A stretch of 58,697 nt of DNA, taken from Candidatus Micrarchaeota archaeon. Lineage in GTDB: Archaea > Micrarchaeota > Micrarchaeia > Micrarchaeales > CABMGC01. This document shows, one piece after another, positions 1 to 58,697 of the stretch. The notes below the pieces were generated by a model that was not told where the DNA came from, did not search any database, and saw only the letters and a list, made by a program, of their open reading frames with translations. The stretch's first letter is position 1; each line of letters opens with the position of its first letter. A program made the position numbers and the translations under genes. The stretch is taken from assembly GCA_021789155.1 (NCBI GenBank), contig JAJYJW010000002.1, positions 1 through 58,697 on the forward strand. The letters run 5' to 3'.

Positions 1-1
1 T

Positions 2-38676: not shown

Positions 38677-39990
38677 ATGGAACCTGGAAAGGACATAGAT
38701 TTCATTGAGAGCAGAGCGTTCGAGCTTATGGAACGCAGGCTAGCGCTGCTGCCAGATACAGAAGCAAGACGCAAATTCATAGCCAACACTGTAAAAAGCA
38801 TTCAAGGAGACGCATCTCAAGAAACAATAGACCAGATAATTAAAGACTCTGAAAGCTTTGGGAAGATAGAACCGCTTCTTAACGATCCGGATATTGAAGA
38901 CATAATGATAAACAACACTTCGAACATTTTCGCATACACGAAAAGCTCAGGTCATAAGAAAATGGATTTCACACTTGATAAGAAAGACCTTGACATATTA
39001 GTAAAGAGACTTAAGCTCTATGCAACCACTACCCTAGCAGATGACAATATCTCGGACATTCACCTGCCTAACGGTTCAAGGGCAAACATAGTTTCTTCAC
39101 CTATGGGTGCAAACGTAACTATTAGGAACTTCAGCCCTGTTGCACTGAGCATAATAGACTTGATAAATGCCGGCGAGTTGAGCTACAACCTTGCGGCAAG
39201 ATTGTGGATATACGTTGACGGTTTGAAAGTCAGGCCTGCCAACCTGCTCATTGGGGGAATACCTGGAAGCGGTAAGACGACTTTGCTCAACGCGATGTTC
39301 AGCTTCTTCAGGCCAGAACAGAGAATAGTAGTTCTGGAAGAAACCTACGAATTGAACACGGAAACGCAGGAAAACTGCGTTAGATTGGAAACAAGTCCAG
39401 AACTGCCGCTTACGGAACTCGTCAAGAACACGCTCAGAATGCGCCCTGACATGATAATAATCGGAGAGGTGAGAGGCGAAGAGGCAAAGGACATGATGAC
39501 TGCGATGAACATCGGAAAGATGGTCATGTGCACGATTCACGCAAGCACTGCGCGAGATGCGGTGACTAGACTACAGCATTCACCTATGAACATAGAAATG
39601 GACATCCTCCCTCTAATCGACGCAATCATAATAATATCGCAGATAGAGGAATCAGGCAAACGAATAAGAAAAATAAGCCAAGTATCCGAAATATCAGGCA
39701 TAGAAACCCAAGTCCTTTTGTCTGACCTTTACAGCTACGACTACAAAACGCACCACAGCTCTGAAATACTGCCTAGCGTAACATACAGGGACCTCCTTTC
39801 TAGGTTAAGCGGTTATCCGCCATCCGAAATAATTCTCGAAGAGCAAAGGCGTGCTAAAATACTGGAAAGGCTCAACCAACTGGGAATCAAGGGTCTGAAA
39901 GACATCAACGCCTTCTGCAAGGAATACTACACAGATCCTGAAAAGGCCCTGGAGAAGATAGGCCTTTCGTCATTGGGAGTGCTGAGGTAG
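38677..39990 (+). CDS. type II/IV secretion-family ATPase (archaeal type IV pilus / archaellum FlaI-PilB-like)
   Basis: Walker A GGIPGSGKTTLLNAMF, Asp box/Walker B RPDMIIIGEVRGEEA, His box TIHAS. Confidence 0.8.
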   Translation: MEPGKDIDFIESRAFELMERRLALLPDTEARRKFIANTVKSIQGDASQETIDQIIKDSESFGKIEPLLNDPDIEDIMINNTSNIFAYTKSSGHKKMDFTLDKKDLDILVKRLKLYATTTLADDNISDIHLPNGSRANIVSSPMGANVTIRNFSPVALSIIDLINAGELSYNLAARLWIYVDGLKVRPANLLIGGIPGSGKTTLLNAMFSFFRPEQRIVVLEETYELNTETQENCVRLETSPELPLTELVKNTLRMRPDMIIIGEVRGEEAKDMMTAMNIGKMVMCTIHASTARDAVTRLQHSPMNIEMDILPLIDAIIIISQIEESGKRIRKISQVSEISGIETQVLLSDLYSYDYKTHHSSEILPSVTYRDLLSRLSGYPPSEIILEEQRRAKILERLNQLGIKGLKDINAFCKEYYTDPEKALEKIGLSSLGVLR

Positions 39991-42782: not shown

Positions 42783-42829
42783 AAGCTCTTTTATTATTTT
42801 ATTATAGAACTCTATCATAGGTGTAATGC

Positions 42830-43657: not shown

Positions 43658-43746
43658 ACCAACTTATCCACATTTGAATTATACTTTATAAAACCCTTTG
43701 CAAGGAATAGTGTTTTATTTTTAATCTGGGGATTAGAACCGATTAT

Positions 43747-44547: not shown

Positions 44548-44550
44548 AAG

Positions 44551-44622
44551 TGGAGGTACAGGGAATCGAACCCCGGCCTGCAGAATGTCAATCTGCCATC
44601 CTAGCCACTAGACGATACCTCC
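44551..44622 (-). tRNA. tRNA-Val (anticodon GAC), no intron
   Basis: Reverse complement folds as GGAGGTA-TC-GTCT-AGTGGCTA-GGAT-G-GCAGA-TTGACAT-TCTGC-AGGC-CGGGG-TTCGATT-CCCTG-TACCTCC-A; canonical T loop. Confidence 0.8.
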
Positions 44623-44669
44623 AACAATTACAGAGAACATTTCTGTGTTTTAGTTATTAAACCCTTCGC

Positions 44670-45560
44670 TCATACTTGAATGAGCATTCCGTCATTTGCG
44701 ATTTCGCTGTTCTTGAAAACCTTCCTCGCTTCGTTTAGCATCTCCACAGTGTCTCTGTACCTTGTGCTTATGTGCGTGAGAATCAGCCTTTTCGCCTTTG
44801 CCTTCTTTGCCACTTCCGCAGCTTCCGTGGACGTGCTGTGTCTGCGCTCTTTCGCGAGGTTAGCCTCGCTGTTCTTGTATGATGATTCATGGATTAGTAT
44901 GTCGGCATCGCTGGCGGCGATTATCGTGTCCCTCAAAGGCCTTGTGTCACAAGCATACACTATCTTCTTCCCGGCTATTTGATACGTTACTTGCTTTATG
45001 CCGATGGTTTTCTTTCCTATCTTGATGCTTCCTTTCTTCAGAAGCTCTGCGAACATGGTGCCCTTGACTCCTAGTTTCTTGCACTTTTCCTTTATGAACC
45101 TCTTTCTGTCGTCTTCCTTGAATACGTAGCCATATGTCTTTATGGAATGGTTTAGCTTGAATGCGTTAACAGTATAATTCTTCCCCGAAAACACCTTCCC
45201 TGCGCTTATGCCAATCACATTTATCGGGTATTTGATTATCGCACTGTCAAACGTTATGAGATTTCGAACGATTTGCTCCTGTCCTTTTGGAACATAAATC
45301 GTAAGTGGCTTATCTCTGCTGTGTATCGCAAGTGTTCTGACTATTCCTGCTATGCCTATGACGTGATCGCCATGTGCATGGGTTATGAATATGGTGTTGA
45401 TTCTGGCCATATTCAATCCGTAATTGAGCATCTTCTCCTGTGTGCCTTCTCCGCAATCGAAAAGAATGAGTTCGCCATTGAACATCAACGCGACTGCAGG
45501 CATCCCCCTCTTCTTGGAAGGCGCTGCACCAGATGTACCCAAAAACATCATTTTTATCAT
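44670..45560 (-). CDS. rnz: ribonuclease Z (tRNA 3' endonuclease)
   Basis: MFLGTSGAAPSKKRG...LFDCGEGTQ, FITHAHGDHVIG (HxHxDH), C-terminal LILTHIS. Confidence 0.85.
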   Translation of the reverse strand: MIKMMFLGTSGAAPSKKRGMPAVALMFNGELILFDCGEGTQEKMLNYGLNMARINTIFITHAHGDHVIGIAGIVRTLAIHSRDKPLTIYVPKGQEQIVRNLITFDSAIIKYPINVIGISAGKVFSGKNYTVNAFKLNHSIKTYGYVFKEDDRKRFIKEKCKKLGVKGTMFAELLKKGSIKIGKKTIGIKQVTYQIAGKKIVYACDTRPLRDTIIAASDADILIHESSYKNSEANLAKERRHSTSTEAAEVAKKAKAKRLILTHISTRYRDTVEMLNEARKVFKNSEIANDGMLIQV

Positions 45561-45564
45561 AAGA

Positions 45565-46650
45565 TCACAGCTCTATCCTAACTTTTTTCTTTGCAAGGTC
45601 AACTTCCTTTACGATGTCTCCAAAAACCTCTTGCACTTCTTGCAATGTCGCTCTTTTGTTCTTTTGCATGTACTCGATCACGTTATTAACTAGCCGCATG
45701 TTTTCAAATATCTTTTGTCCTGATTCTGTTCCTTCTTTCTCCCTTGTCTCAAGTTCATCTAGGATTTTCTTCTGCTTCTCGATATTCGCGGCAATCGCGT
45801 CTACTCTCGAAGTGTCTTTCTTTATTCCTATTCTCGCGTCAAGGTAGAACCTCTCTAGCATTTCACTTATGCTCTGGAACGATAACTGCTCCAAACCGGA
45901 ATACTTCTTCAATGGAAGAAGGGAGTATTCGTACAACTCAAAATCCTTCGAATAAATTGTGGGGATTGGATGAAGGAACAAAGCGTCTACGAATGAGCGC
46001 GTAGCTGTAGCGATTTCCTTCGCTGTTTTATCATCGTTGATTGGAGAGTCCGCAGGAATTTTCAATTCCTCTAATATCTGCTCCGCATATACTGGCGCTA
46101 TCCCCATTGCGACTATGGGTTTTATCGCCTTATCCTCTTTCCTTTCCATCAAATTGCTAGCTATCTGCTCCACGCTTGCATTTGATACATTCAATGTGGA
46201 AGCGTTCGGGAATTCATAGATAATTTTTGGCTTTACTTCACGATCCTTCTGTGCAGTATTCCTATATGCGATGTTTATCTTCATCGCAGGATCGGTTATT
46301 ATCACGTTCCCTTTCGCGAAAAGCTCGATTATCAGCTTGGTTTCATCGGAGAAAGTCATGATTAGTATTCTGTCCATTCCGTACTGGCTTATCTCCTTGA
46401 GCTTCTTGTTCATTATTAGCTTTCTTGCCACTGTGCAGAATTGCGTTGGCGTATCCGTTTCCTCCACGATCGAGGTGAAGTTAACAACATAGGGTATTCT
46501 GACGAAAAGCACGCGCTTCGCAGATGCGGAGGTGAAATGAAATCTGATAGCGCCTTCCCCAAGATCGTATATCTTGCCAAGGAATAGGCCTTCTAAAGAT
46601 TTCAGCTCCTTGACTATGCATGCAATCTCGATTGCAGAAAGGGAGCGCAT
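45565..46650 (-). CDS. NFACT-N (FbpA/RqcH N-terminal) domain protein
   Basis: N-terminus MRSLSAIEIACIVKELKSLEGLFLGKIYDLGEGAIRFHF resembles the NFACT-N start of archaeal RqcH/NEMF homologues. At 361 aa it is shorter than the about 650 aa I expect for full-length homologues. Confidence 0.5.
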   Translation of the reverse strand: MRSLSAIEIACIVKELKSLEGLFLGKIYDLGEGAIRFHFTSASAKRVLFVRIPYVVNFTSIVEETDTPTQFCTVARKLIMNKKLKEISQYGMDRILIMTFSDETKLIIELFAKGNVIITDPAMKINIAYRNTAQKDREVKPKIIYEFPNASTLNVSNASVEQIASNLMERKEDKAIKPIVAMGIAPVYAEQILEELKIPADSPINDDKTAKEIATATRSFVDALFLHPIPTIYSKDFELYEYSLLPLKKYSGLEQLSFQSISEMLERFYLDARIGIKKDTSRVDAIAANIEKQKKILDELETREKEGTESGQKIFENMRLVNNVIEYMQKNKRATLQEVQEVFGDIVKEVDLAKKKVRIEL

Positions 46651-46656
46651 CTAGGT

Positions 46657-47448
46657 TCACTTTTTGAGCTTGCGCGCGCCTTCCTCCTTGACCACTTTAG
46701 CGAAGCTTGTCACAAGTTTCGCGGCATCGGCTGATTCTTCCATCGCCGTGCCGACTTGTATAATGTCAGCGCCTGCGGAATATGCTGAAGCCAATGCGGC
46801 AGTATCGCGTATGCCCCCTGCAACAATGTATGGTACTGATATCGAGCTTTTAACTGCTTTTATCATGTCCAATGGTATAGGACCAGAACCCTGCAATTGA
46901 GGATTAGAACCAGTGTCAGTTACTATGAACCTGTTTCCCAGATACTCGCCTGCCATTGCAAGCGCTGCCGCAATCTTCGGCTTAGCCCTTGGTATCATGT
47001 TAGCGTCGCCAACCCATCCCACAGTGCCGCCTGGCTCCACGACAATGTAGCCTATAGGCAAAGGCTCTACCTTAAGGCTCTTCGTGAGAGGCGCTGCAAG
47101 CATCTGTGCCTGGATTATCCAGTACGGATTCCTTGCATTGAGCAGAGACATGAAATAAACCGCATCTGCATACTTTGTTAGGGTGGCGATGTTTCCCGGG
47201 AATAGAACTATTGGGACGTTGCCCGCCTTTTCCTTTACGCCTTTGCAAACGTAATCGAGAAGCTCTCCCTGAGCGCCTATGCTTCCACCCACAAGAAGCA
47301 TGTCCGCACCAGCGTTTATGCTCGCTGCTGCTGTTTTTATCGCTGCATCAGGCGTCTTGTAATCTACCGGATCTATTAGCATCGAAAGCATCGCACCCTT
47401 GCTTTCTAGCGTATCGTATATGTATTTCTCTACTTTTCCAAATTTCAA
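46657..47448 (-). CDS. geranylgeranylglyceryl phosphate synthase (PcrB/GGGPS family)
   Basis: LIDPVD, LLVGGSIG, VLFPGN, SLLNARNPYWIIQAQ, VAGGIRD...AGADIIQVGTAMEE. Confidence 0.8.
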   Translation of the reverse strand: MKFGKVEKYIYDTLESKGAMLSMLIDPVDYKTPDAAIKTAAASINAGADMLLVGGSIGAQGELLDYVCKGVKEKAGNVPIVLFPGNIATLTKYADAVYFMSLLNARNPYWIIQAQMLAAPLTKSLKVEPLPIGYIVVEPGGTVGWVGDANMIPRAKPKIAAALAMAGEYLGNRFIVTDTGSNPQLQGSGPIPLDMIKAVKSSISVPYIVAGGIRDTAALASAYSAGADIIQVGTAMEESADAAKLVTSFAKVVKEEGARKLKK

Positions 47449-47493
47449 ATGAACACCTGTAGATAATCAGGATTACGAACATCAGTTATATAG

Positions 47494-48513
47494 CTATATG
47501 TTATGCTTCGCGCTTTTCATCTTTTTCTCATATGTCTTGAACATCTCCATTGCGCCAGAATCAAGCTTCACAATCGGCTTATATCCCAATTGGGCCTTTA
47601 TCCTGCTAATGTCTATCTGCCTGTTGCTCGTCAAGAACCTATATTCGTCTGGATTGATCTTGACGTAAGGCAGCAGAACCTTAGCTATGAACCTGTTAAT
47701 GGTACTGTCTACCCTGGGAACTTTGAGCATGTCCGCAGCGAGATTGAACAAGATGCGCTGGGTGTGGAATTCGCCGTCGGTTAGGTTGTATACGTTCCCT
47801 ATGCTTTTCTTCGATGTGCTCGCGAGTATGAATGCCTGCATTACGTCGTATACGTGCACCAGGTTAAGGGTATTCGTGCCATCGCCGATTATCCTCGCCT
47901 TCCCCAATCTCACCATGTCGAAGAACTTGAAGAATTGTTCCTCGAAGCCAGGCCCATACATTACCGCTATTCTGAATATGGTTGAAGGAACCGTGGATTT
48001 ATAGCGCTGTATTATCTGCTCCGCTAGCATCTTGCTAACCCCGTATTTATCCTGCGGGTCAAGAGATGAGTCCTCGTTAAGAATTTCATTCCTGCGGTAT
48101 CCGTAAACGTCTACGCTGCTAGGAAATATGAAATGCGATACCGCATTGTCTTCGCACGCCTCGAGAACGTTCCTAGTGCCATCGACATTTATGCGCATAA
48201 GGTTCATCGGATTGACCTTGTATTCGCTCACTATTGCCGCAAGATGAAATACGTTATCTACGCCTTTGCATGCATCGTTGAGTATTGCGCTGTCGTTAAT
48301 GTCTCCGACGAATGGGATTGTACCGCTAGGCAAATGAATTATCGAGTCTTTTCTGTTTACCAGCGCCCTTACCGTGTCGCCCCTTTTGATCAAAACCTTA
48401 ATAAGTTCCTTTCCAAGACGACCGCTTGCGCCAGTAACGAAGCTAACTTTGCCTTTGTTCTTTGGCACAGGATTAGTACCGCCGAGTTCTTCGTCTTCGG
48501 CATTTTCTTGCAT
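47494..48513 (-). CDS. NAD-dependent epimerase/dehydratase (extended SDR)
   Basis: VSFVTGASGRLGKELIKVL (TGxxGxxG), YGVSK (YxxxK). Confidence 0.75.
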   Translation of the reverse strand: MQENAEDEELGGTNPVPKNKGKVSFVTGASGRLGKELIKVLIKRGDTVRALVNRKDSIIHLPSGTIPFVGDINDSAILNDACKGVDNVFHLAAIVSEYKVNPMNLMRINVDGTRNVLEACEDNAVSHFIFPSSVDVYGYRRNEILNEDSSLDPQDKYGVSKMLAEQIIQRYKSTVPSTIFRIAVMYGPGFEEQFFKFFDMVRLGKARIIGDGTNTLNLVHVYDVMQAFILASTSKKSIGNVYNLTDGEFHTQRILFNLAADMLKVPRVDSTINRFIAKVLLPYVKINPDEYRFLTSNRQIDISRIKAQLGYKPIVKLDSGAMEMFKTYEKKMKSAKHNI

Positions 48514-48522
48514 TTAAACACT

Positions 48523-49353
48523 TCACTCGCTATTCAGCAGATTGCTTGCGAGCTTCCTCATGTACCCCTCAGGCACATTGTTTGCTGCATATGATGCCCA
48601 ATCCTTTCCGAATGGGATGTGCATGCTGAGCCTTGCCCCCTTCTTGAGAAGCCTGTTTATCTTCTTCGAGCTGTATCCTAATTGAAACTCAAAAATTAAA
48701 GATTTTTTGTACTTTGGCCACACTTTTAACAGCTTGTCTATGTCCTTGTCGCCCAATGAAAGGAGCACTGTGCTTTTGGATGAATCAAGGATTTGCTTTA
48801 TCTTGTCAACGTATTTCAGGTCGTGCTTGACGTTCTCGCCGTTGCACATTACCTTTATGCTGCGCGCTTTCCTGTTCTTCTTTATGAACTTTAGCGCATT
48901 GGTTACGTCGCTGAACGCCAATCCAACGTCTGTTCTGTTTGCTATAGCATTTATGAAGTTGTATTCTTTGTAAAGATCGTGAACTTCGAACCACGTGAAT
49001 ATGTTGTGCTTTGAAGAAAGTGCGTTTATCGCATCCATGTTCTTGTTGCACACGTCTTCGGACAGGGAACTGCCTATCTGCTCCAATGGCATGTGTATGC
49101 ATGCGCTTAACCCCATTCTCTTCAATTCCCTTATCAGTTGCATGTAGGTATTTGCTATGTAATTCGCTTTCGTGCTGTCCTTCGGTTCCCTTGATATGAA
49201 AGTAATAGAAACTGGAAGGCCTCTGGCATTGAACTGCTTCGCCTTTCCTATAGCAGAGCTCATCGTAGGGCCAGCTATGTGCTTTCTAACCAGCCTGAAT
49301 ACCACTTTCTCAACGAATGATTCTTTCTGCATCGAAACCTCTCTAGGCGTCAT
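48523..49353 (-). CDS. proline dehydrogenase-like protein
   Basis: Weak blocks RKHIAGPTMSSAI...GLPVSITFISRE and C-terminal MHIPFGKDWASYAANN resemble monofunctional PutA-type PRODH (f.aGet, lgE, PyG.dw.pY); low certainty. Confidence 0.4.
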   Translation of the reverse strand: MTPREVSMQKESFVEKVVFRLVRKHIAGPTMSSAIGKAKQFNARGLPVSITFISREPKDSTKANYIANTYMQLIRELKRMGLSACIHMPLEQIGSSLSEDVCNKNMDAINALSSKHNIFTWFEVHDLYKEYNFINAIANRTDVGLAFSDVTNALKFIKKNRKARSIKVMCNGENVKHDLKYVDKIKQILDSSKSTVLLSLGDKDIDKLLKVWPKYKKSLIFEFQLGYSSKKINRLLKKGARLSMHIPFGKDWASYAANNVPEGYMRKLASNLLNSE

Positions 49354-49449
49354 TTCTGAATTGCGAAAAATTGCTGAAGCTACGCGGGTTGCCTCCTAAT
49401 TATATTGCATACAAGGGTTCTTAAATCCTTTGCGACGCAGAAGAATAAT

Positions 49450-50694
49450 ATGGAGCACGTTTCCAAATCAAGGGGCATCAGTGGAGAAATCAAGAGATCT
49501 GCAGACGATTTCATAGTAGAAGAGATTTCGAAAAATGGGGGCTTGCTGAAAATTAACCAGGATTTCAGTGCTGCACAGCTAGGTGAAAAAGAAGATGCGG
49601 ATGGCAAATTCGCCAAGTTCGTATTGCAGAAGAAGAACTGGGACACGATAAGGGCGCTTATGGTGGTAGCGAAAACAGTTGGCAGGGGCGTAAAATCCAT
49701 AGGCTACTCTGGAATGAAGGACAGAATATCTACATCTACGCAGTTGGCTAGCATTTACGGGGTTAACGCATCTGCACTTAGCAGGGTTAACCTCAGAGAT
49801 TTGAGGATATGCGGAGCATGGCAATCCTCAACCGCCGCGAGTATGGGCGACCTTCTAGGCAATCATTTTACCGCAAGGATTTGCGATTCGTATGCGTCTG
49901 ACGAGAAGATTATAACAATAAATGAGGAGCTTAACGGAAGAATAGCAAACTATTTCGGCAAGCAGAGATTCGGAATAAGGGGAAACAACGCGAACATCGG
50001 ACTTGCGATAATGCGCGGAGACCTTGAAAACGCAGTCATGGATTTTCTCACAAACACCAAACATGAAACCAACGAGGAAAGCGTAACGGCAAGGGAGAGA
50101 TTGGCACAGGACAGGGATTTCGATGCAGCATTGAAATATTTTCCAATGCACTTGCGGAACGAACGCAGAGTAATATCGAAATTGGCCGCTAATGGAGGCG
50201 ATTACGCGAATGCGTTGCGTTCTATTCCTAGGGGAACGAGCATAATGTTCATCCACGCAGTTGAATCGCAGATATTCAACGATGAACTCAACATGCGCAT
50301 AAAAAGCAACGACATGGAAAATGCTCTGCTATACTGCGGCTTGAACGGCTACGGCTTCCCAGACATAAAGAATCTTACTGCTGAGAAAATGGATGGGGCG
50401 CTACCAGTAGCGCCGTTAATCGGATACAACACAAAACCCGAACACATAAACAGCTACGAAGAAGAAATAATGGAAAAGATGGGCTTGCACGTCGAGGATT
50501 TCAAAGTTAAGAAAATGCCTGAACTAGGAATGAAAGGAACGGAGCGCGCTCTTATGATAAACTATCTTGATTTCAACTACAAGATAGAGGAAAAAGACGC
50601 AATATTCGAATTTTCGCTGCCCGCTGGTGCCTATGCCACAATGCTCCTAGAAGAATTCACAAAGAACGAGAATCAGAATCATGGTGTTGAATAA
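49450..50694 (+). CDS. truD: tRNA pseudouridine synthase D (TruD/Pus7-like)
   Basis: GISGEIKRSADDFIVEEI, GYSGMKDRISTSTQ (catalytic Asp block), NYFGKQRFG; the ORF-track frame opens at TTG 49405, the in-frame ATG 49450 is preferred. Confidence 0.8.
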   Translation: MEHVSKSRGISGEIKRSADDFIVEEISKNGGLLKINQDFSAAQLGEKEDADGKFAKFVLQKKNWDTIRALMVVAKTVGRGVKSIGYSGMKDRISTSTQLASIYGVNASALSRVNLRDLRICGAWQSSTAASMGDLLGNHFTARICDSYASDEKIITINEELNGRIANYFGKQRFGIRGNNANIGLAIMRGDLENAVMDFLTNTKHETNEESVTARERLAQDRDFDAALKYFPMHLRNERRVISKLAANGGDYANALRSIPRGTSIMFIHAVESQIFNDELNMRIKSNDMENALLYCGLNGYGFPDIKNLTAEKMDGALPVAPLIGYNTKPEHINSYEEEIMEKMGLHVEDFKVKKMPELGMKGTERALMINYLDFNYKIEEKDAIFEFSLPAGAYATMLLEEFTKNENQNHGVE

Positions 50695-51554
50695 CCAGAT
50701 TCCCAGTTGCTCGTGAAAGTAACTGCGCTTGTCACTCCATTCTTGTTGTTGCCCGAATAGTCCTTTGCATCGCCGTTTAGCGGCCACCATCCCACTAAGT
50801 TGTTGAGCTTTACTGGTGCGCCGCCGATGCCTTCATTGTACAACGCAGTAATTTCGTTTGCCGAGAGTGTGGCATTGTACACCTGCATGTTTGACATGTA
50901 GCCATACAGGGAATTCGCAGTATATCCTTTTCCGAGAGTCATCTGCACGTTGTTTACCTGCGCAGGGGCATTTACATACGTTGCAGTATTTTGAAGTGCG
51001 CCATTGAGATATGATATGACATTCTTTGGAGATGCAGAACGCGTTATTGTTATCAGCATCCATTTGCCAGGTTCGAAGGTTCCTGCGGGAAACATCACGA
51101 GGCTCTCGTAGCTACATCCGCTATAGCTTTGATAAAAATACAGACTTCCATCGGACCACGCAGTAGCGGTGAAATCGTTGCACAAACCCTGATCAAAAGG
51201 ATTGAAACCTCCTGACAATGGCGCATTCTTCAGATATATCCAAAACGATATGCTCATTGTAGCAGGCAGAGCGAAATTTATTCCAGTGGTAATCTGTGAG
51301 CTTGCACCTCCATTAAAAGATGCGACGTATTGGGGAAGCTCGCCATTGCAAATTCCCTGAAGATTGATGAACGATGTAGTCATCGGTCCATTAGGACGAA
51401 AAACATGGCAAGCGCCTGGCGGCGCCTTGGGTGTAAAAGTAGACGCATTGAAGATTCCTAGTTGGAAGAGTGCCCCGAGTACTACTGCAATGATGAGTAT
51501 TGCCCATCCGTAGGTCATGAGGTATTCCATTGCAGATTGAAGTTTTGTTGCCAT
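50679..51554 (-). CDS. class III signal peptide (type IV pilin-like) LamG-domain protein P1
   Basis: MATKLQSAMEYLMTYGWAILIIAVVLGALF (short basic leader plus hydrophobic helix), Cys pair ACHVF...GICNG. LamG-type tail MSNMQVYNATLSANEITALYNEG...LVGWWPLNGDAKDYSGNNKNG. Confidence 0.75.
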   Translation of the reverse strand: MATKLQSAMEYLMTYGWAILIIAVVLGALFQLGIFNASTFTPKAPPGACHVFRPNGPMTTSFINLQGICNGELPQYVASFNGGASSQITTGINFALPATMSISFWIYLKNAPLSGGFNPFDQGLCNDFTATAWSDGSLYFYQSYSGCSYESLVMFPAGTFEPGKWMLITITRSASPKNVISYLNGALQNTATYVNAPAQVNNVQMTLGKGYTANSLYGYMSNMQVYNATLSANEITALYNEGIGGAPVKLNNLVGWWPLNGDAKDYSGNNKNGVTSAVTFTSNWESGYSTP

Positions 51555-51561
51555 GTTATCA

Positions 51562-52419
51562 CTAAGGTGCAGAATAACCTGCTTCCCAACTACTCGTGAA
51601 GCTTATCCCAGACGCAGCCCCATTAGCATTGTTTCCAGAATAGTCCTTCGCATCGCCATTCAAAGGCCACCATCCAACAAGATTGTTCAGTTTCACGGGT
51701 GCGCCGCCTATCCCTTCGTTGTATAGTGCTGTTATTTCATTCGAGGTTAATGACGAATTGTATATCTGAACATTTGCAATCTGCCCGGCAAAGTAGTGAA
51801 CCCAGGAGTATCCGATCTTCGTAGAAATATAGTTGGCATATGGACTTATCGAGCTCCAGCTGGTGTATGAGACCGTTTGTGGGATACCATTAACGTATAT
51901 GCCAAACACGCTGCCAGAACTTGTTATGACTAGGTTATACCACGTGCTAGTTGAAAATGTAGCTGTTGAAGATGCAATCTGATCTGTACCGTATGCAGTA
52001 TACCCTGCACCAGAACCACTAATCCACACCTGGTAACCGCCCCCTCCATTCTTCAGATTACCCAATATGGAACCTCTGGCATTTGACGATAGCTCTATCC
52101 ATGCAGAAAGTGAATACGTGCTTTGTGGATACCAGTCACTTGCTACAGTATTCAAATCTACGTAATTACTTACGCCGTTGAATTTCGCGACGTATTGCGG
52201 CAATTCTCCATTGCATATTCCCTGAAGATTGATGAACGATGTTGTTCCAGGTCCATTAGGACGAAACACATGGCAAGCGCCAGGCGGCGATTTCGGCGTG
52301 AATGTTGAAGCGTTAAAAATACCCAACTGGAATAATGCACCTAATACTACTGCTATGATGAGTATTGCCCATCCGTAAGTCATGAGGTATTCCATCGCGC
52401 TTTGAAGGGTGTGTTTCAT
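51562..52419 (-). CDS. class III signal peptide LamG-domain protein P2
   Basis: Preferred start MKHTLQSAMEY at 52419 by analogy with the paralogues (the ORF-track frame extends to 52491); same N- and C-terminal modules. Confidence 0.75.
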   Translation of the reverse strand: MKHTLQSAMEYLMTYGWAILIIAVVLGALFQLGIFNASTFTPKSPPGACHVFRPNGPGTTSFINLQGICNGELPQYVAKFNGVSNYVDLNTVASDWYPQSTYSLSAWIELSSNARGSILGNLKNGGGGYQVWISGSGAGYTAYGTDQIASSTATFSTSTWYNLVITSSGSVFGIYVNGIPQTVSYTSWSSISPYANYISTKIGYSWVHYFAGQIANVQIYNSSLTSNEITALYNEGIGGAPVKLNNLVGWWPLNGDAKDYSGNNANGAASGISFTSSWEAGYSAP

Positions 52420-52429
52420 AGCTAGTACC

Positions 52430-53308
52430 TCATGGTGCGCTGTATCCTGCAGACCAGCTACTGGTGAATGAAATGGCTGTGGCAGCACCATTGTTGTTAT
52501 TGCCCGAATAGTCCTTCACATCGCCATTGAGCGGCCACCAGCCTACAAGATTGCTTAACTTAATCGGAGCAGCACCTATGCCCCCATTATACAACGCTGC
52601 TATTTCATTGGAGGACAAAGATGCGTTGTATACCTGCACGTTGCTCATTAAACCCGTAAAGTACTGTCCACCTGTGCCTAGCTGCCCCAGAAACATGTGA
52701 TGGGTCGAATCAAAGAGAAGAGGAGTGTTCGAAGTATATGCTCCTGATCCAAGATTCGTTCCATCTACGTATGCTGTCCAGCCCGTAGTGGTAACGGCAA
52801 AGCATCCTTGATACCAAGTGTCTGCACCGAAATTGTAAGTCACATATCCGCTGATTTCTATCCAATTGCTTCCAGTCCCGATGTCATTATACCATTTATT
52901 TCCAGGAGTTGCCAGTTGCATGTCAAAAGAATAATCGCCTGGACCTCTAGAGGACAAAATTTCCGGCCCACCTGTTAACACTGAAGGATTGAACCAGGCA
53001 CAAGTCGTGAAAGAATTTTTTACTGTAGTGGGTATAGCAGTAACATAACCAGCGCCATTGAACTTAGCAACATACTGCGGCAATTCTCCATTGCAAATTC
53101 CCTGAGTATTTATGAAAGAGGTTGTTCCTGGGCCATTAGGACGAAAAACATGGCAAGCGCCTGGCGGCGCCTTTGGGGTGAAAGTAGAAGCGTTGAATAT
53201 GCCTAGCTGAAAGAGTGCACCAAGCACGACCGCTATGATGAGGATTGCCCACCCATAAGTCATTAGGTATTCCATTGCGGACTGCAGCATGAGATTGTTA
53301 TTTCGCAA
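52430..53308 (-). CDS. class III signal peptide LamG-domain protein P3
   Basis: MRNNNLMLQSAMEYLMTYGW...; the 3' block 52488-52591 is identical to the reverse complement of 57510-57613. Confidence 0.75.
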   Translation of the reverse strand: MRNNNLMLQSAMEYLMTYGWAILIIAVVLGALFQLGIFNASTFTPKAPPGACHVFRPNGPGTTSFINTQGICNGELPQYVAKFNGAGYVTAIPTTVKNSFTTCAWFNPSVLTGGPEILSSRGPGDYSFDMQLATPGNKWYNDIGTGSNWIEISGYVTYNFGADTWYQGCFAVTTTGWTAYVDGTNLGSGAYTSNTPLLFDSTHHMFLGQLGTGGQYFTGLMSNVQVYNASLSSNEIAALYNGGIGAAPIKLSNLVGWWPLNGDVKDYSGNNNNGAATAISFTSSWSAGYSAP

Positions 53309-53374
53309 GCAATTTCCCGCAAAGAATATTCATCGTATACTTAAAAACATTTTGCAGAGTAGGCTATATTCTGG

Positions 53375-53424
53375 AATGGTTAAAATAAAAAGAAAGAGAA
53401 TGAAGGTACAATTATTGTACCTTC
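53375..53424 (-). terminator. palindromic hairpin plus T-tract after the short pilin gene
   Basis: gaaggtacaat-t-attgtaccttc (11-bp arms, 53402-53424, overlapping the stop codon). On the minus strand it is followed by ttctctttctttttatttt. Confidence 0.4.
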
Positions 53425-53996
53425 GCAGTGAGGGTTGCAACCTTCACAGTTATCATAGGGTTTGATCCGCCAGGCGCTCCGCTCTGAAGAGTGTAGTTCA
53501 TCCATAGGGAACCGCTAAATGACTGGCCTACGGCAATATTCGTTACCGCATTGGCATTGGTGTCGAAGCACTTCAAATTGCTTACTGTAGCGGTTTGTCC
53601 GCTAGTAAGTGTCAGTGCAACTGCATCTTGTCCAGGTGCATTTGCAGTTAGTGCGTTAGCTGCGCCGCTACTGTCTATATATACTACAGCACTTGACGGG
53701 TTAGGCGTTCCTCCAGAGGAGGTTGTAGCTACACAGCCAAGTCCAACGTTGTAATATGATGTTCCAGTACTTTGTCCTATCTGGATTGACAAGTTGCCGT
53801 TAGTGCCGAGTTGAGGGGACTGACACAAGAATCCTGGACCTGCTATGCATGTTACTCCTATGAAAGAGCTGCTGCTGAAAATTCCAAGGCTGAACAACGC
53901 TCCTAGCACAACTGCTATGATGAGGATTGCCCATCCGTAGGTCATCAGGTATTCCATTGCAGATTGAAGTTTCATGTTTGACATGCAATCATTCAC
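53412..53996 (-). CDS. short class III signal peptide pilin-like protein P4 (no LamG module)
   Basis: ...MKLQSAMEYLMTYGWAILIIAVVLGALFSLGIF, then a Gly/Ser/Thr/Ala-rich about 150-aa beta-type body; the start could be 53996, 53984 or 53975. Confidence 0.7.
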   Translation of the reverse strand: MNDCMSNMKLQSAMEYLMTYGWAILIIAVVLGALFSLGIFSSSSFIGVTCIAGPGFLCQSPQLGTNGNLSIQIGQSTGTSYYNVGLGCVATTSSGGTPNPSSAVVYIDSSGAANALTANAPGQDAVALTLTSGQTATVSNLKCFDTNANAVTNIAVGQSFSGSLWMNYTLQSGAPGGSNPMITVKVATLTAKVQ

Positions 53997-54009
53997 TATG
54001 CTTAAGTAG

Positions 54010-54023
54010 TATATATTTAAATT
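54010..54023 (-). promoter_or_regulatory. TATA-like box upstream of the short pilin gene
   Basis: The minus strand reads aatttaaatatata about 15-40 nt upstream of the candidate start codons. Confidence 0.3.
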
Positions 54024-54066
54024 ACTTGCTTTGCCTTAAGAGGATAAGTCAGAGGACAAGCAGAGC

Positions 54067-54603
54067 TTATTTAGCTACCTGCTTGTTCTCGTATGAAACT
54101 ATTTTGTAAGTTCCAGAAAGCTTCTTCGAAGCTCTTTTCAATGCTTCATGAGCTATTTTTTTGTTTGCCCCTGCAGTCTTCAGTTCAAATACTGCCTGGC
54201 CCGCAAACATTCTCGCAGCAACGGAGCTTGGCCTTCCGAATGAGAGGGCCATACCCTGGGATATACGGTCTGCTCCCGCACCAGTTGCCCTTTTCTTTTC
54301 CCTTATTATGTCGTGCGGATAAGGCACTACTCTGAGGGAATAGTTGTTTGGCACTTTCCTCTCAAGGTACTTGTTTGCTATCTGACGCGCAGCTTCCAGA
54401 GAATTTGATCTCAACTTGAAGTTCTGCTCTATTGTCAGTTTGAACGTTGTGTCAAAGCTCTTGGTCTTGTTTCCCATATTGAATACCAGCAGGCTTGTGT
54501 GCGGTAGCGACTTTATGAAGTTCTTTCTGGGTTTCCTTATGGAATAACGACTCCATGCTTGGCTGTTTATTTTTCTAACTGCCCTTCCTGGCCTTAATCT
54601 CAT
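54067..54603 (-). CDS. rpl10e: 50S ribosomal protein L10e (uL16)
   Basis: MRLRPGRAVRKI...YSR, LEAARQIANKYL, YPHDIIREKK, GAGADRISQGMALSFGRP. Confidence 0.9.
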   Translation of the reverse strand: MRLRPGRAVRKINSQAWSRYSIRKPRKNFIKSLPHTSLLVFNMGNKTKSFDTTFKLTIEQNFKLRSNSLEAARQIANKYLERKVPNNYSLRVVPYPHDIIREKKRATGAGADRISQGMALSFGRPSSVAARMFAGQAVFELKTAGANKKIAHEALKRASKKLSGTYKIVSYENKQVAK

Positions 54604-54784
54604 CTTTACACCAAATCAAATGCAATACACGAGCTTTCCTAGCGAAATTGCTTCGCAAGAACTAGTACTCGCGATAATTTATTTGCTAGTAACCCTATAT
54701 ATTCCTTTCTGTAGCCGTTGCAACGCATGGTGACGTAACTCGGGAATGGTTTAAATAGATTTAAGCGGAACGAAATGTGATTGC

Positions 54785-55204
54785 ATGATTACCCGAAACA
54801 AGATTTCAAACTATGACGAGCCAATTCAGATGATCGACATAGTGAGGAGTAATGCAGTAAAAGCAAGCGATGCCGATGTAGAAAACGTGTTGTCTCGCAT
54901 TTCTGCCGCATTTACAATGGTTCCTATACTCTACAGAGTATGCTTGAACAACATGAATGTGCCTGAACCTCTTCAAGAATCAAAAAAGTTGTTGCTGGAA
55001 CACCAAGATGCAAGAATACGCGAAATGATAAAAGACAAAGGCTGGCAATTTGACAGTTCAAGGGAAATAACATACGATGAATATTTCCCAGAATTCCTCC
55101 AGCGGCACGAAGCCCTTGTAGATGAGATAAATAGCAACATAATGCGCCAGCTCATGGAAAAAAACACCAGCCTGAAAACGGTAAAACGTCTTGATGATGT
55201 ATGA
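54785..55204 (+). CDS. hypothetical protein
   Basis: 139-aa charged ORF; the antisense ORF 54973-55365 looks like a shadow frame. Confidence 0.45.
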   Translation: MITRNKISNYDEPIQMIDIVRSNAVKASDADVENVLSRISAAFTMVPILYRVCLNNMNVPEPLQESKKLLLEHQDARIREMIKDKGWQFDSSREITYDEYFPEFLQRHEALVDEINSNIMRQLMEKNTSLKTVKRLDDV

Positions 55205-55249
55205 GCAAGCTTTAAATTTCTACCAGTTAATATAATAACATCTGGTTTA

Positions 55250-56791
55250 ATGTCAAAGTTCCTTAACGCGAACTTCTTGGGTAGGTTCCTCACAATATTC
55301 TTGTTTCTTCTCTTATCAATTGCAGGGTTAATATTCTCAATATACCTATTTTCGGTGTCTAGCAACTTCTACATGTATGTGCTCGCAATATCCTTTACCA
55401 TTCTTTCTGTAGTTTCAGGCTTCTTCAACATTTATGCATCAGTCTGGTATTTCCGCTCGTTCTTTTACGATGATTATCTGGCAAAAGTAACGGAGGAAGC
55501 AGGCAAGCTTGAATCTTACCCTACGGTAGCGGTTGCCATGCCTACATTCAACGAAGATCCTGATCTGATAGCAAAGAACATGGCAGAACTAAAGAAGATG
55601 AATTATCCTAAGGACAAGATTCGTTTCTACCTTCTAGATGACTCTACAAAGAAAGAGGTAAGCGCTAAACTTGTCGAAGCAGCAAAGAAGCACGGATTCG
55701 AGTATTCTCATAGGGAGGATCGCACTGGATTCAAGGCAGGGAACATAAACGGTCTTGTTGCGAGGGCAAACGAAGAGTTTCTGGCAATATTCGATTATGA
55801 TGAATTCCTCACGGATAAGGATTTCCTTCTTGATACTCTCCCATTTTTCAAAGACAAGAAGCTTGCACACATCCAAACAGAGAAGAGGTACGCAAAGCAT
55901 TCCTTCTTTTCAGATACAGTCGATATATTCGACGCGTTTTTCTTCAAGTTCATAGAGCCTGCCAGAGCGCTGAATAACACTGCGGTTTTCTGCGGTTCAT
56001 GCGGTGTAGTTAGGATGTCAGTTCTGAAGGAAATGAACGGCTTCCCTACTTTCGTGATAGAGGATACTTTCTTCAGTTTCGAATCGGATATGCTCGGCTA
56101 TAAAGGGCTGTATTTGCCAAAGGTTTATGCTCTTGGAAAACCGATAAAGACCTTCACCGAATTAAGTTCGCAGCAGTGGCGCTACAATTATGGTGATACT
56201 CAGTTCATATCCTATTTCCTAAAGAAGAAGAACAAGAAAGGCTCGCCAATGGCAAAAGTTGATTACATTACTCACGGATTCGGGCTTAATTATCTATCTG
56301 TGGTGGTTCTGCTTTTCACAATAGTCTCGATAGGATTGGTATTCACATATATCCCGTTTGCACATATCAACTTCTACGCGTTGACTGACGCATCGCAACT
56401 TTCCCTTTACATTGAGCTTCTGGGATTGTTCGCATTCACGCTTTCTCTGCTCACGCCGGTATTCCTTACTAAAATATACTTCGGTTCTTTCTCTAAAGGA
56501 TTCATGGTTTTTCTCCTGAACTATACTCTCACTTTCATAAGGACAAAAGCAGCAATAGCCTCATTCTTGAAGGGTAATCCTAGAAAAGGATGGCTTAGGC
56601 AAACCGAGGATACTGTTCATAACATACGTTATGCATTGAGCAATACGAAAACCGAAGTGGTTTTCTCGTCTGTTCTTTTCTTCGCTGGCGCATTCGCGTT
56701 GTTCAACTACAATATCTCTGGCGGCATTTGGATGCTTTGGTATGCAGTGCTGTACGGTCTTACCGTTGTAATGTTCTACAAATACGGGTAG
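55250..56791 (+). CDS. membrane-embedded processive family 2 glycosyltransferase (cellulose/chitin/hyaluronan-synthase-like)
   Basis: N- and C-terminal TM bundles around a GT2 core: VAVAMPTFNEDP, LLDDST, FDYDEF, VIEDTFFS (TED-like), SQQWRYNYG (QxxRW-like). Confidence 0.75.
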   Translation: MSKFLNANFLGRFLTIFLFLLLSIAGLIFSIYLFSVSSNFYMYVLAISFTILSVVSGFFNIYASVWYFRSFFYDDYLAKVTEEAGKLESYPTVAVAMPTFNEDPDLIAKNMAELKKMNYPKDKIRFYLLDDSTKKEVSAKLVEAAKKHGFEYSHREDRTGFKAGNINGLVARANEEFLAIFDYDEFLTDKDFLLDTLPFFKDKKLAHIQTEKRYAKHSFFSDTVDIFDAFFFKFIEPARALNNTAVFCGSCGVVRMSVLKEMNGFPTFVIEDTFFSFESDMLGYKGLYLPKVYALGKPIKTFTELSSQQWRYNYGDTQFISYFLKKKNKKGSPMAKVDYITHGFGLNYLSVVVLLFTIVSIGLVFTYIPFAHINFYALTDASQLSLYIELLGLFAFTLSLLTPVFLTKIYFGSFSKGFMVFLLNYTLTFIRTKAAIASFLKGNPRKGWLRQTEDTVHNIRYALSNTKTEVVFSSVLFFAGAFALFNYNISGGIWMLWYAVLYGLTVVMFYKYG

Positions 56792-56798
56792 TGGTGCT

Positions 56799-57674
56799 TT
56801 GCCAACAAAACTTCAATCCGCAATGGAGTATCTCATGACTTACGGATGGGCAATCCTCATCATAGCTGTAGTATTGGGTGCGCTTTTTCAATTGGGAATC
56901 TTCAATTCCGCTACATTTACGCCCAAGGCGCCGCCAGGCGCATGCCACGTCTTCAGGCCAAACGGCCCAGGAACAACCTCTTTCATAAATACTCAGGGAA
57001 TTTGCAATGGAGAATTGCCGCAATACGTCGCGAAATTCAACGGCGCTGGAAGCATAACAGTACAAAGCAATAACCAAATTACCAATTACAAAAATAAAAT
57101 TACATATGTAATATGGTTTAATCCTTCTATATCAAGCAGCACAATGAGTGATACTGGATTTATGTCTCAAGTCACCGGAAACAACGAGTATATCGATTTT
57201 CTTCTCCATGCAGGATATCTGAGGTACGAAGTGGTCAATTTTTCGGATATTGCAAATCAAGGAGGATCTTTTTTGACGATTTCTCCAGTGAGTGCAGGTT
57301 CGTGGTATCAAGCGGCGTTGACCTATGATGGCGCAACTCTTACCGGTTACCTCAATGGAGTGTTTCAAGCATCCAGAACGCTGAATACAAATATGCCTAC
57401 AAATACAAATCCCCTGCTTCTTGGTTATTACGTCAATTATTTCAAAGGATCTTTAGTTAATGCGCAGATATACAACTCAACTCTTTCCGCCAACGAAATT
57501 ACTGCATTGTATAATGGGGGCATAGGTGCTGCTCCGATTAAGTTAAGCAATCTTGTAGGCTGGTGGCCGCTCAATGGCGATGTGAAGGACTATTCGGGCA
57601 ATAACAACAATGGGGTTCCAACTACTGGCGTTACGTTCATGAGCAATTGGGAATCAGGGTATTCTGCACCATGA
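56799..57674 (+). CDS. class III signal peptide LamG-domain protein P5 (TTG start)
   Basis: MPTKLQSAMEYLMTYGW...; shares PGTTSFINTQGICNGELPQYVAKFNGAG and the identical 104-nt 3' block with P3. Confidence 0.75.
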   Translation: MPTKLQSAMEYLMTYGWAILIIAVVLGALFQLGIFNSATFTPKAPPGACHVFRPNGPGTTSFINTQGICNGELPQYVAKFNGAGSITVQSNNQITNYKNKITYVIWFNPSISSSTMSDTGFMSQVTGNNEYIDFLLHAGYLRYEVVNFSDIANQGGSFLTISPVSAGSWYQAALTYDGATLTGYLNGVFQASRTLNTNMPTNTNPLLLGYYVNYFKGSLVNAQIYNSTLSANEITALYNGGIGAAPIKLSNLVGWWPLNGDVKDYSGNNNNGVPTTGVTFMSNWESGYSAP

Positions 57675-57683
57675 TGTGAGCTG

Positions 57684-58535
57684 TTGATGAGTAAGTTACA
57701 ATCCGCAATGGAATACCTCATGACTTACGGATGGGCAATACTCATCATTGCAGTAGTACTCGGGGCACTCTTCCAACTAGGAATCTTCAATGCGTCTACT
57801 TTTACACCCAAGGCGCCGCCAGGCGCTTGCCATGTGTTTCGTCCTAATGGACCGATGACTACATCGTTCATCAATCTTCAGGGAATATGCAATGGAGAAT
57901 TGCCGCAGTATGTTGGTGTATTTAGTGGAACAAACAGTTACATTAGCTTGGGTAATATCGCAGGCACCAATAATTACTGGTCGATAGCTTTTTGGACACG
58001 CACTTCTACGTTAAGTCCATTGGTACAATATCCGATTGGCTTCAATGGAATAGGGGGACATGCAGGAATCTTTATTGCAGATACAAACGATTGTGGACAG
58101 ACTGCTTGTATAGGAGTTTATGACGGTTTTTCAATTGTAGAAGGTAGTTCAACAGCCACAAATACTTGGTACAACGTGGCGGTTTCAAAGTCAGGGACTA
58201 CTTACAATCTTTACGTCAACGGGGCTTTTGTTAAATCAGGGACTATGACAAACCTTCCCCTTAACCAAGTATTCTTTGCATCTAGACCTGATGCTGCATT
58301 GCTCTTGCATGGCATGTTAGCAAATATGCAGATTTACAATTCAACCATATCTGCAAACGAAATCGGTGCTCTTTACAATGAAGGATTAGGGGGCGCACCA
58401 ATAGCTCTGAGTAGCCTTGTAGGGTGGTGGCCACTGAACGGCGATGCAAAGGACTATTCGGGCAACAATAATAACGGTGTACCCACTGGAATAAGTTTTA
58501 GCAGCAGTTGGCAACAGGGCTATTCTGCACCCTGA
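57684..58535 (+). CDS. class III signal peptide LamG-domain protein P6
   Basis: MMSKLQSAMEY...; 57705-57895 differs from the reverse complement of 51343-51533 (P1) at only 3 positions by eye. Confidence 0.75.
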   Translation: MMSKLQSAMEYLMTYGWAILIIAVVLGALFQLGIFNASTFTPKAPPGACHVFRPNGPMTTSFINLQGICNGELPQYVGVFSGTNSYISLGNIAGTNNYWSIAFWTRTSTLSPLVQYPIGFNGIGGHAGIFIADTNDCGQTACIGVYDGFSIVEGSSTATNTWYNVAVSKSGTTYNLYVNGAFVKSGTMTNLPLNQVFFASRPDAALLLHGMLANMQIYNSTISANEIGALYNEGLGGAPIALSSLVGWWPLNGDAKDYSGNNNNGVPTGISFSSSWQQGYSAP

Positions 58536-58546
58536 TGTGATTATAG

Positions 58547-58697
58547 ATGAATAAAAGATTACAATCTGCGATGGAATACCTCATGACTTACGGATGGGCA
58601 ATACTCATCATTGCAGTAGTACTCGGGGCACTCTTCCAACTAGGAATCTTCAATGCGTCTACTTTTACACCCAAGGCGCCGCCAGGCGCTTGCCATG
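58547..58697 (+). CDS. class III signal peptide pilin-like protein P7, 5' fragment (runs off window end)
   Basis: MNKRLQSAMEYLMTYGWAILIIAVVLGALFQLGIFNASTFTPKAPPGACH...; nearly identical in nucleotide sequence to the P6 5' module. Confidence 0.7.
   Translation, partial: MNKRLQSAMEYLMTYGWAILIIAVVLGALFQLGIFNASTFTPKAPPGACH

Follow-up and report, generated by a model that had tools for sequence, protein, structure and literature searches.

Pilins that carry a lectin-like module have been described in bacteria, where few modular pilin architectures are commoner than a pilin combined with PF13385 (PMC8179133) and where PilC of Streptococcus sanguinis is an experimentally proven lectin pilin (PMC9934059). 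In archaea, type IV filaments of system 1 are reported from methanogens and DPANN archaea, with a high variety of pilins (bioRxiv 10.64898/2026.04.22.720090), and an expansion of LamG-like genes, some of them tied to type IV pilus loci, was reported for 'Ca. Mancarchaeum acidiphilum' Mia14 (Golyshina et al. 2017, PMC5498576); LamG and Micrarchaeota pilins are not mentioned by Makarova et al. (2016). The subject of this work is a cluster of seven genes (P1–P7) that extends from position 50679 to the end of a 58,697-nt stretch of DNA from a Candidatus Micrarchaeota archaeon (GenBank assembly GCA_021789155.1, contig JAJYJW010000002.1), analysed at its full length and referred to here as the window. 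The seven open reading frames (ORFs) encode the identical peptide LQSAMEYLMTYGWAILIIAVVLGALF, placed 1–8 residues past the start, and the cluster probably represents, in one local array, a large family of Micrarchaeota whose products are modular type IV pilin-like proteins bearing a LamG lectin module. As such the locus is of a known kind, that of the bacterial modular lectin pilins, of PilA1–PilA6 of Haloferax volcanii and of the DPANN LamG expansion, and its family is already annotated and uncharacterised.

With the bacterial modular lectin pilins (S. sanguinis PilC and the proteins combining a pilin with PF13385) the window proteins share an N-terminal signal of predicted class III type, an alpha-1 helix and a very short pilin moiety, onto which a concanavalin-A-like/LamG module is grafted, and they are likewise encoded beside ordinary short pilins. 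In contrast to their bacterial counterparts, the signal is an archaeal one, with Gln at position +1 and with neither the IPR012902 motif nor the N-methyl-Phe site, the paralogues number at least six per locus, a genome having many of them where the bacterial counterpart has one, and an extra conserved junction motif is found at the C-terminus. Besides, lectin activity has been proven for PilC, whereas for the LamG pilins of the window both this activity and a location at the tip are putative.

The PilA1–PilA6 paralogues of H. volcanii resemble the window genes in combining a near-fully conserved hydrophobic H-domain with divergent outer parts, and in not lying beside the pilB/pilC machinery (PMC4371748); they give differing adhesion properties (PMC4371748). 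However, PilA1–6 are small, lack LamG and carry a DA/RA↓VS signal processed by PibD, and conservation in the window also covers the block after the helix and the C-terminal tail. The Epd pilins of Methanococcus maripaludis have K/R at −2, +1 Gln and +5 Glu in common with the family at large, but they are short proteins without LamG, and their residue at −1 is Gly/Ala where all seven genes of the window have Leu; unlike in the Epd/EppA system, no EppA homologue was located in the window.

Mia14 belongs to the same phylum and its expanded jelly-roll LamG-like genes were proposed to play a role in host interaction (PMC5498576), but the pilin-type N-terminus, the conserved blocks, the tail motif and the recombination tracts do not appear in that paper (PMC5498576). 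The Mia14 locus was placed on a genomic island (PMC5498576); the cluster region of the window, by contrast, has no break in composition, and a genomic-island origin, which was considered, found no compositional support, the GC content over 48–58 kb (0.41–0.46) matching that of the flanks. TafC of the haloarchaeal Tat-fimbriae (Tafi) is an archaeal filament subunit with a C-terminal laminin-G-like domain and a proposed tip adhesin (PMC11821415). Unlike the window pilins, Tafi are Tat-exported, assembled by donor-strand exchange and not of type IV, and the similarity of TafC is confined to LamG: P1 matches the NCBIfam TafC model weakly over its LamG part (20.6 bits, cut-off 410). The pilE/pilS system of Neisseria also comprises several pilin-related copies with conserved and variable segments and gene conversion between copies. 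The pilS copies are silent, promoterless and devoid of the 5' conserved region, whereas the copies of the window are all complete, and conversion among them is rare, as judged by synonymous divergence, and placed in the conserved blocks instead of the cores.

Architecture of the pilin-LamG proteins

The seven genes form two co-directional runs. The minus-strand run starts with P4 (53412..53975), which encodes a short pilin of 187 aa that has the shared helix and no LamG, and continues with three pilin-LamG genes: P3 (52430..53290; 286 aa), for which TTG 53308 is an alternative start giving the leader MRNNNLML, P2 (51562..52419; 285 aa from ATG 52419, the ORF being open up to 52491) and P1 (50679..51554; 291 aa). 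The plus-strand run consists of P5 (56799..57674; 291 aa, TTG start) and P6 (57684..58535; 283 aa, ATG 57687 also possible), both pilin-LamG genes, and P7 (58547..58697), the 5' part of a seventh family member that is cut by the contig end (translation MNKRLQSAMEYL...PPGACH).

The prediction that seven ORFs join a short leader to a shared helix peptide was confirmed. The leaders (MATKL, MKHTL, M(RNNNLM)L, M(SNM)KL, MPTKL, M(M)SKL and MNKRL) are followed by QSAMEYLMTYGWAILIIAVVLGALF, and the shared N-terminal helix comprises 26 residues, identical in all seven genes. A short basic leader thus stands directly before a hydrophobic stretch of about 20 residues, which is the class III or prepilin-type layout. 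Cleavage is predicted at (K/R/T/M)-L↓QSAME. The +1 Gln and +5 Glu of this site are present in the seven genes and in the family consensus alike, as is typical of euryarchaeal pilins of the EppA type; the same two residues are conserved in EppA substrates (PMC4371748). About 90% of the family members have K/R at −2. Position −1 is occupied by Ser (46), Ala (38) or Leu (29) in 127 members from genome loci, and by Ala (57) or Leu (42) in 106 database matches. This residue is sometimes mixed inside one locus (L002, L007, L015 and L032 of the loci collected from other assemblies).

The LamG fold proposed for the long proteins was confirmed both by profile and by structure. Pfam Laminin_G_3 matched P1 (E 6.5e-17), P2 (E 2.6e-17), P3 (E 5.9e-19), P5 (E 1.1e-17) and P6 (E 1.3e-15), that is, with E-values from 1e-15 to 6e-19, at 58.3–69.1 bits against a gathering cut-off of 27.6 and over profile positions 2–151. 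In the AlphaFold2 model of P1, for which 120 homologues were used, a helix of 24 residues (8–31) precedes a jelly-roll LamG sandwich with a predicted local distance difference test score (pLDDT) of 80–93. The pLDDT falls below 55 in the hairpin after the helix (residues 48–68), with its invariant residues Cys49 and Cys69, and also in the last 40 residues. A Foldseek comparison of the P1 core with the Protein Data Bank (PDB) retrieved pentraxins, the LamG of PAPP-A, the LNS domain of neurexin and the lectin-like Hc-N domain of botulinum, that is, clostridial, neurotoxin (E 4e-10 and lower), and a sequence profile run against the PDB returned the same set of folds, including 4qvs, 5hon and the carbohydrate-binding module of an arabinanase. 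The core is therefore modelled as a two-sheet LamG/concanavalin-A-like jelly roll. A pilin helix and a Cys49–Cys69 hairpin followed by Laminin_G_3, a domain that is not specific to pili, correspond to the layout of a modular pilin.

The long proteins close with the motif LVGWWPLNGDxKDYSGNNNNG...W..GY..P. A profile of the last 49 residues found 5,128 cluster representatives at E ≤1e-3, and its top matches were proteins of 600–5,300 aa with 3–10 copies of the motif. In such tandem-LamG proteins the distance from the last LamG strand (xxQIYN) to WWPLN is always exactly 34 residues, a spacing also found in P1, and the motif stands 38–46 residues ahead of the next LamG; the long genes of the window end about 10 residues before the point where a next LamG would begin. 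Because of this common 34-residue spacing, the tail is read as the inter-repeat junction of tandem-LamG proteins, apparently kept at the end of a single-LamG protein throughout the phylum. The giant proteins (among P0241–P0390, e.g. P0243, P0245 and P0309) have tandem LamG repeats joined by an IGGAP...LVGWWPLNGNANDYSGNGNNG junction, and P0243 represents a class with 2–4 LamG repeats and a class III-like N-terminus (RKA↓QIALEY...). The single-LamG pilins would then be one end of a wider tandem-LamG series. In P0268 (321 aa, from another sample) the junction is duplicated internally (…LYQEGIGGAPIDLQHLVGWWPLNGNAN twice), which looks like a product of slippage or unequal crossover in the conserved tail. 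The tail was also considered as an internal repeat of the N block, the block that follows the helix; the likeness seen by eye was not supported (hhalign of the sub-alignments, probability 0.06). The tail profile matched nothing significantly among PDB sequences, the best match being LolB (E 0.23).

The family to which these proteins belong is large. A search with P1 returned more than 3,500 proteins at E ≤1e-5 which, where named, are each a 'LamG domain-containing protein' of Micrarchaeota or Micrarchaeia, a few being labelled Marsarchaeota; the assignment of this DNA to a small DPANN archaeon, made from the letters alone, agrees with the named homologues. More than 520 coding stretches were found in a scan of one genome per species, nearly all of them in metagenome-assembled genomes of Micrarchaeota, and the JGI metagenomes contain at least 554 further members. 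Family members occur in arrays (up to seven in 12.6 kb, in L002) as well as singly among housekeeping genes. Neither the protein database nor the GTDB species genomes nor the JGI metagenomes contained a strain-level relative; identity reached 53–57% at best.

Conserved ends, diverged cores and gene conversion

As the original prediction had noted, divergence is not uniform along the genes: amino acid identity between paralogues is 92–97% in the N block, 16–26% in the core (about 140 residues) and 70–80% in the C block. The N block, PPGACHVFRPNGPxTTSFINxQGICNGELPQYV, is complete in P1, P2, P3, P5 and P6 and is readable only to PPGACH in P7; the conserved Cys-pair block reported in six genes is thus established for five and, in the sixth, as far as that point. 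The C-terminal block described for the five complete long genes was found in all of them, with minor departures in P2 (LT) and P6 (IS) where LS had been written. At the DNA level, the two close matches pointed out by the original prediction were reproduced: 57705–57895 differs from the reverse complement of 51343–51533 at 3 of 191 positions, and 57510–57613 equals the reverse complement of 52488–52591, the exact match extending to 107 nt (57507–57613 and 52488–52594). The general claim that the ends are near-identical in DNA does not hold, since the N blocks are 78–83% identical in nine of the ten pairs, P1–P6 alone reaching 92%, and synonymous sites of the C block are saturated except in P3–P5.

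Synonymous (dS) and nonsynonymous (dN) divergence, estimated per block for the paralogue pairs by the Nei-Gojobori method, separates protein conservation from recent exchange. In the N block dS amounts to 0.9–2.2 in nine of ten pairs (0.31 in P1–P6) with a dN of 0.02–0.07 and a dN/dS of about 0.03, and dS is saturated in the C block of all pairs but P3–P5, as it is in the cores within the window. Even where the peptide is identical the codons are not: 9–15 of the 26 third positions of the shared helix differ in most pairs, as do 17 of the 31 third positions of a tail peptide that P1 and P2 have in common. Mean column identity in 120 members from other genomes is 0.96 in the helix, 0.79 in the N block, 0.75 at residues 221–245 (the last LamG strand/helix segment), 0.71 in the tail and 0.20 in the core; the closest TruD proteins of the same organisms are just 50–52% identical to the TruD of the window. 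Because synonymous sites are saturated, third positions differ and these blocks are conserved family-wide where TruD is at 50–52%, the ends are held by strong purifying selection on the protein. Local homogenisation is unnecessary to explain them, and the proposal that gene conversion maintains the identity of the ends was not sustained, given the saturated synonymous sites of most pairs and the conservation of the blocks across the phylum.

Gene conversion is nonetheless real, and local. Tracts were detected by a GENECONV-style permutation of variable sites, and those of P1/P6 and P3/P5 were significant (global permutation p = 2e-4 for each). A recent tract in the 5' block of P1 (51309..51539, minus strand) has its partners in P6 (57699–57929) and P7 (58555–58697): P1 and P6 are 92% identical over 231 nt, with 34 consecutive variable sites identical, and P7 joins this tract with 2 mismatches in 136 nt relative to P1 and 99% identity to P6. 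Another recent tract, in the 3' block of P3 (52488..52594, minus strand), is matched exactly over 107 nt by P5 (57507–57613) and contains 43 consecutive identical variable sites. Weaker tracts in the distal N block link P3 with P5 (run of 17) and P2 with P5 (run of 14), each with a p of 2e-4 in the pairwise test. At the protein level the mosaic described previously is real. It is recombinational in P1/P6/P7 (5' block) and in P3/P5 (3' block); in P1/P2 it reflects shared ancestral or selected residues. All tracts lie in conserved blocks, because recombination starts and ends only where sequences are similar, and conversion is a by-product of end conservation and not its cause.

The tandem LamG pilins of another locus (L036, 12595–13470 and 13493–14398) differ clearly in helix and N block, yet from where the N block ends their sequences are the same, core and tail included, which is the opposite of the window pattern. 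This pair shows that recent duplication or conversion may also span the cores.

The cores of the window, 16–26% identical, share no tracts. Each of them matches proteins of distant genomes over the whole core (35–68 bits, 30–35% identity) better than it matches its neighbours (13–36 bits), a comparison somewhat inflated by the larger external database, in which E-values down to 1e-16 are nevertheless real. The existence of better matches in other genomes than among the neighbours suggests that the cores are old, diverged paralogue lineages rather than products of local hypervariation, and the description of the cores as hypervariable was not supported.

A cassette-type system likewise found no support in the genes themselves. 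Six copies are complete, each with a start codon, the full signal and helix and a Shine-Dalgarno-like motif. Intergenic gaps measure 7–11 nt, with GGTG/GAGGT motifs ahead of P2, P1, P5, P6 and P7; in P2 a GAGGT motif is placed 8 nt 5' of the ATG and the spacing to the stop codon of P3 is 10 nt, and P5, preceded by GGTG, starts 7 nt past the stop codon of a gene for a membrane glycosyltransferase of family 2 (GT2; 55250..56791, plus strand). TATA-like boxes are found 5' of P4 (TTTAAATATATA at ~54010–54021), of P3 (TTTTTAAGTATA, about 50 nt upstream) and of the GT2 gene (TTTAAAT). Complete genes, short gaps, Shine-Dalgarno-like motifs and TATA-like boxes together imply two putative transcription units, P4-P3-P2-P1 and GT2-P5-P6-P7, with silent donors in neither. 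The copies are full genes in two operon-like runs, without the silent partial cassettes that such a system would use. The locus is not a new kind of variation system.

Short pilin, filament ATPase and competing readings

P4 shares only the helix with the long genes and heads its run. Its orthologues are 59–66% identical over their full length, a conservation above that of TruD which fits a structural subunit, and P4 is a candidate for the major or a structural pilin. Its AlphaFold2 model (mean pLDDT 89.8) combines a helix (residues 9–32) with an all-beta domain in the 'lollipop' layout of archaeal pilins; Pfam and NCBIfam scans of P4 gave no match. A FlaI/TadA-like type IV filament ATPase (Pfam T2SSE, E 9e-36) is encoded 10.7 kb from the cluster (38677..39990, plus strand), and its orthologues (56–69% identity) recur near family members: in L005 the orthologue is immediately adjoined by a short pilin on one side and a LamG pilin on the other, and in L036 it lies between two LamG pilins and a P4-like pilin adjoining L10e, which echoes the P4-L10e adjacency of the window.

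According to the mechanism proposed here, each long protein would consist of a leader, a class III site, the alpha-1 helix, a Cys-bridged beta-hairpin (the N block), one LamG jelly roll and the C-terminal junction motif. The proteins would be exported and then trimmed by a prepilin peptidase, and the FlaI/TadA-like ATPase would polymerise the LamG pilins, via the shared helix, together with the short pilin P4, leaving the LamG modules exposed as lectin-like adhesins along the filament or at its tip. The attachment to a host or matrix that the original prediction had put forward would be a plausible role for them. Purifying selection for processing and assembly would keep the helix, N block and tail near-constant, the diverged LamG cores would presumably bind different ligands, and occasional conversion between paralogues would homogenise the conserved blocks locally. 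In a more speculative and rather improbable extension, the tail would act as an intermolecular docking or donor element that completes or clamps the LamG of a neighbouring subunit or of a multi-LamG surface protein as partner and, together with the tolerance of Leu at −1, would define a distinct Micrarchaeota-specific mode of processing and assembly for host attachment. If this were true, the filaments would combine a type IV helix core with outer beta-strand complementation and accept interchangeable lectin heads.

Several observations speak against such a filament. Leu occupies position −1 in all seven window genes (KL↓Q, TL↓Q, ML↓Q, RL↓Q) and P2 and P3 have no charged residue at −2, whereas processing by the FlaFind rule is reported to need a charge at −2 and one of Gly, Ala and Ser at −1 (PMC4371748). 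The pilin-like N-terminus of the original prediction stands as far as the basic leader and the 24-residue AlphaFold2 helix are concerned; the Pfam Class_IIIsignal (PF04021) and NCBIfam archaeal pilin/archaellin models matched none of six proteins at E ≤1, a weak negative in view of their very short length. Membership of the pilin class is supported by the architecture, not proven by it. Both the N block and the tail are modelled at the low pLDDT given above, and P4 found no significant Foldseek match among solved pilins (best pilin 8fk7, E 0.023, TM-score about 0.3). The ATPase falls below every NCBIfam equivalog cut-off, the FlaI and TadA matches being sub-threshold, and the window, like the surroundings of the ATPase in L005 and L036, yielded neither a prepilin peptidase nor a platform protein (ArlJ/TadC). 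Membrane ORFs at 37421–38170 and 24680–25402, among others, were tried as peptidase or platform candidates, and hydropathy, Pfam and NCBIfam gave nothing for them. Many family members are solitary, surrounded by housekeeping genes and without pilus genes in the vicinity.

Part of this evidence would be accommodated if the class III-type signal served for export and anchoring only, so that the proteins were displayed as single helix-anchored lectins or on a short pseudopilus, without long pili. Such a bindosome-like or membrane-anchored display, which we regard as the less likely arrangement, would agree with the large globular part (about 250 aa), with the many paralogues scattered among housekeeping genes, with the missing platform and peptidase genes nearby and with a Leu at −1 that may block cleavage. 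As the bindosome of Sulfolobus shows, pilin-type signals can be borne by large binding proteins (PMC4371748), and the ATPase of the window has a weak NCBIfam match to BasE. However, the long proteins have exactly the helix of P4, a conserved short pilin of the same operon, ATPase, short pilin and LamG pilin form one block in L005, Gln is kept at +1 and Glu at +5, just as they are in the assembled Epd pilins, and a column identity of 0.96 fits the helix-helix packing of a filament better than it fits a simple anchor.

The remaining alternatives concern the repeats of the array. Crossovers in the flanks might shuffle LamG cores between expression contexts and so generate ligand or antigenic variation: significant tracts lie on both sides of the P3/P5 core and at the 5' end of P1/P6/P7, the two gene runs are inverted, so that crossovers would invert the 3–6 kb between them, the tandem pair of L036 has the same core and tail behind different N blocks, and assemblies break at the repeats. 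We consider this improbable, because the copies are all complete and apparently expressed, with no silent cassettes, the saturated synonymous sites of the flanks in most pairs indicate that exchange is rare, the flanks are conserved phylum-wide with no need of local homogenisation, and the cores are old and have closer relatives in other genomes; with a best external identity of 53–57%, there are no strain-level relatives to show shuffling. That the near-identical tracts, or the gene order across them, are chimeric joins of short reads is very improbable. The end of the window falls within the repeated 5' block of P7, and an independent assembly of the same organism (GCA_027334535.1, contig DAHWUQ010000003.1; L001) stops at 52594, exactly the boundary of the 107-nt P3/P5 repeat. 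Nevertheless, that contig is 100% identical to the window over 40679–52594, which includes P1, P2 and the 3' end of P3, all ORFs pass through the tracts intact and without a shift of frame, and hundreds of other assemblies show the same architecture. A branch of the assembly graph at the repeat means that there are two copies, and the repeats are therefore real; beyond 52594, the joins across them rest on the present assembly.

Neighbouring genes and meaning of the family

Between the two runs lie the genes for ribosomal protein L10e, a 139-aa ORF and the membrane GT2 glycosyltransferase, and TruD adjoins P1. The TruD, L10e and GT2 neighbours recur in only 1–2 of 79 loci, and the position of the array is not conserved among loci. 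The GT2 protein (513 aa; Pfam Glycos_transf_2 and Glyco_trans_2_3) has five predicted transmembrane segments in a layout similar to that of processive synthases, with two N-terminal segments, the glycosyltransferase domain and then the C-terminal segments. A polysaccharide synthase thus seems to be co-transcribed with the three lectin-like pilins P5-P6-P7; an orthologue (58% identity) is found near LamG pilins in L035 only.

Just upstream of the ATPase gene are a 4Fe-4S ferredoxin-like ORF with CxxCxxCxxxC motifs (38175–38624, plus strand) and a 249-aa protein with five predicted transmembrane segments and no family match (37421–38170, plus strand), neither of which recurs beside the ATPase in other loci. 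Downstream, positions 40782–42782 (plus strand) encode a secreted protein of 666 aa with a signal peptide, a C-terminal transmembrane anchor and many N-x-S/T sequons, without any Pfam or NCBIfam match; orthologues (35–46% identity) are placed less than 10 kb from LamG pilins in L010, L011 and L034, and a role as an S-layer or surface protein is possible. A nickel superoxide dismutase (Sod_Ni; 43747–44547, plus strand) is followed by a small S24/S26-like peptidase. The two are the usual maturation pair, which is notable in a reduced DPANN genome. Elsewhere in the window, Rfam tRNA matches at 31856–31951 and 32018–32138 (plus strand; 96 and 121 nt), absent from the ARAGORN output, are probably intron-containing archaeal tRNA genes. 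The GC content rises to 0.47–0.50 at 8–12 kb (8001–12000), against 0.37–0.40 in 1–8000 and 16001–22000, with changes in the sign of the skew; this stretch is possibly an island of distinct composition that has no relation to the pilin cluster.

Micrarchaeota and other DPANN archaea rely on physical contact with a host cell, and the molecules of this contact are largely unknown. With thousands of members, many per genome, a restriction to Micrarchaeota, a pilus-type signal and a lectin-like domain, the family described here is a strong candidate for the contact apparatus, and the sole strongly diverged region of its proteins is the presumed ligand-binding part of the predicted lectin-like domain. 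The vague annotation of a 'LamG expansion' becomes a domain map, in which leader, invariant helix, Cys hairpin, LamG and junction tail can be told apart, with named candidate partners: the short pilin P4, the FlaI/TadA-like ATPase and possibly the GT2 synthase. Near-identical gene ends, finally, need not mean that cassettes are shuffled; in this family the ends are kept by selection on the protein and recombination is an occasional side effect, whose chief consequence is that assemblies break at the repeats.

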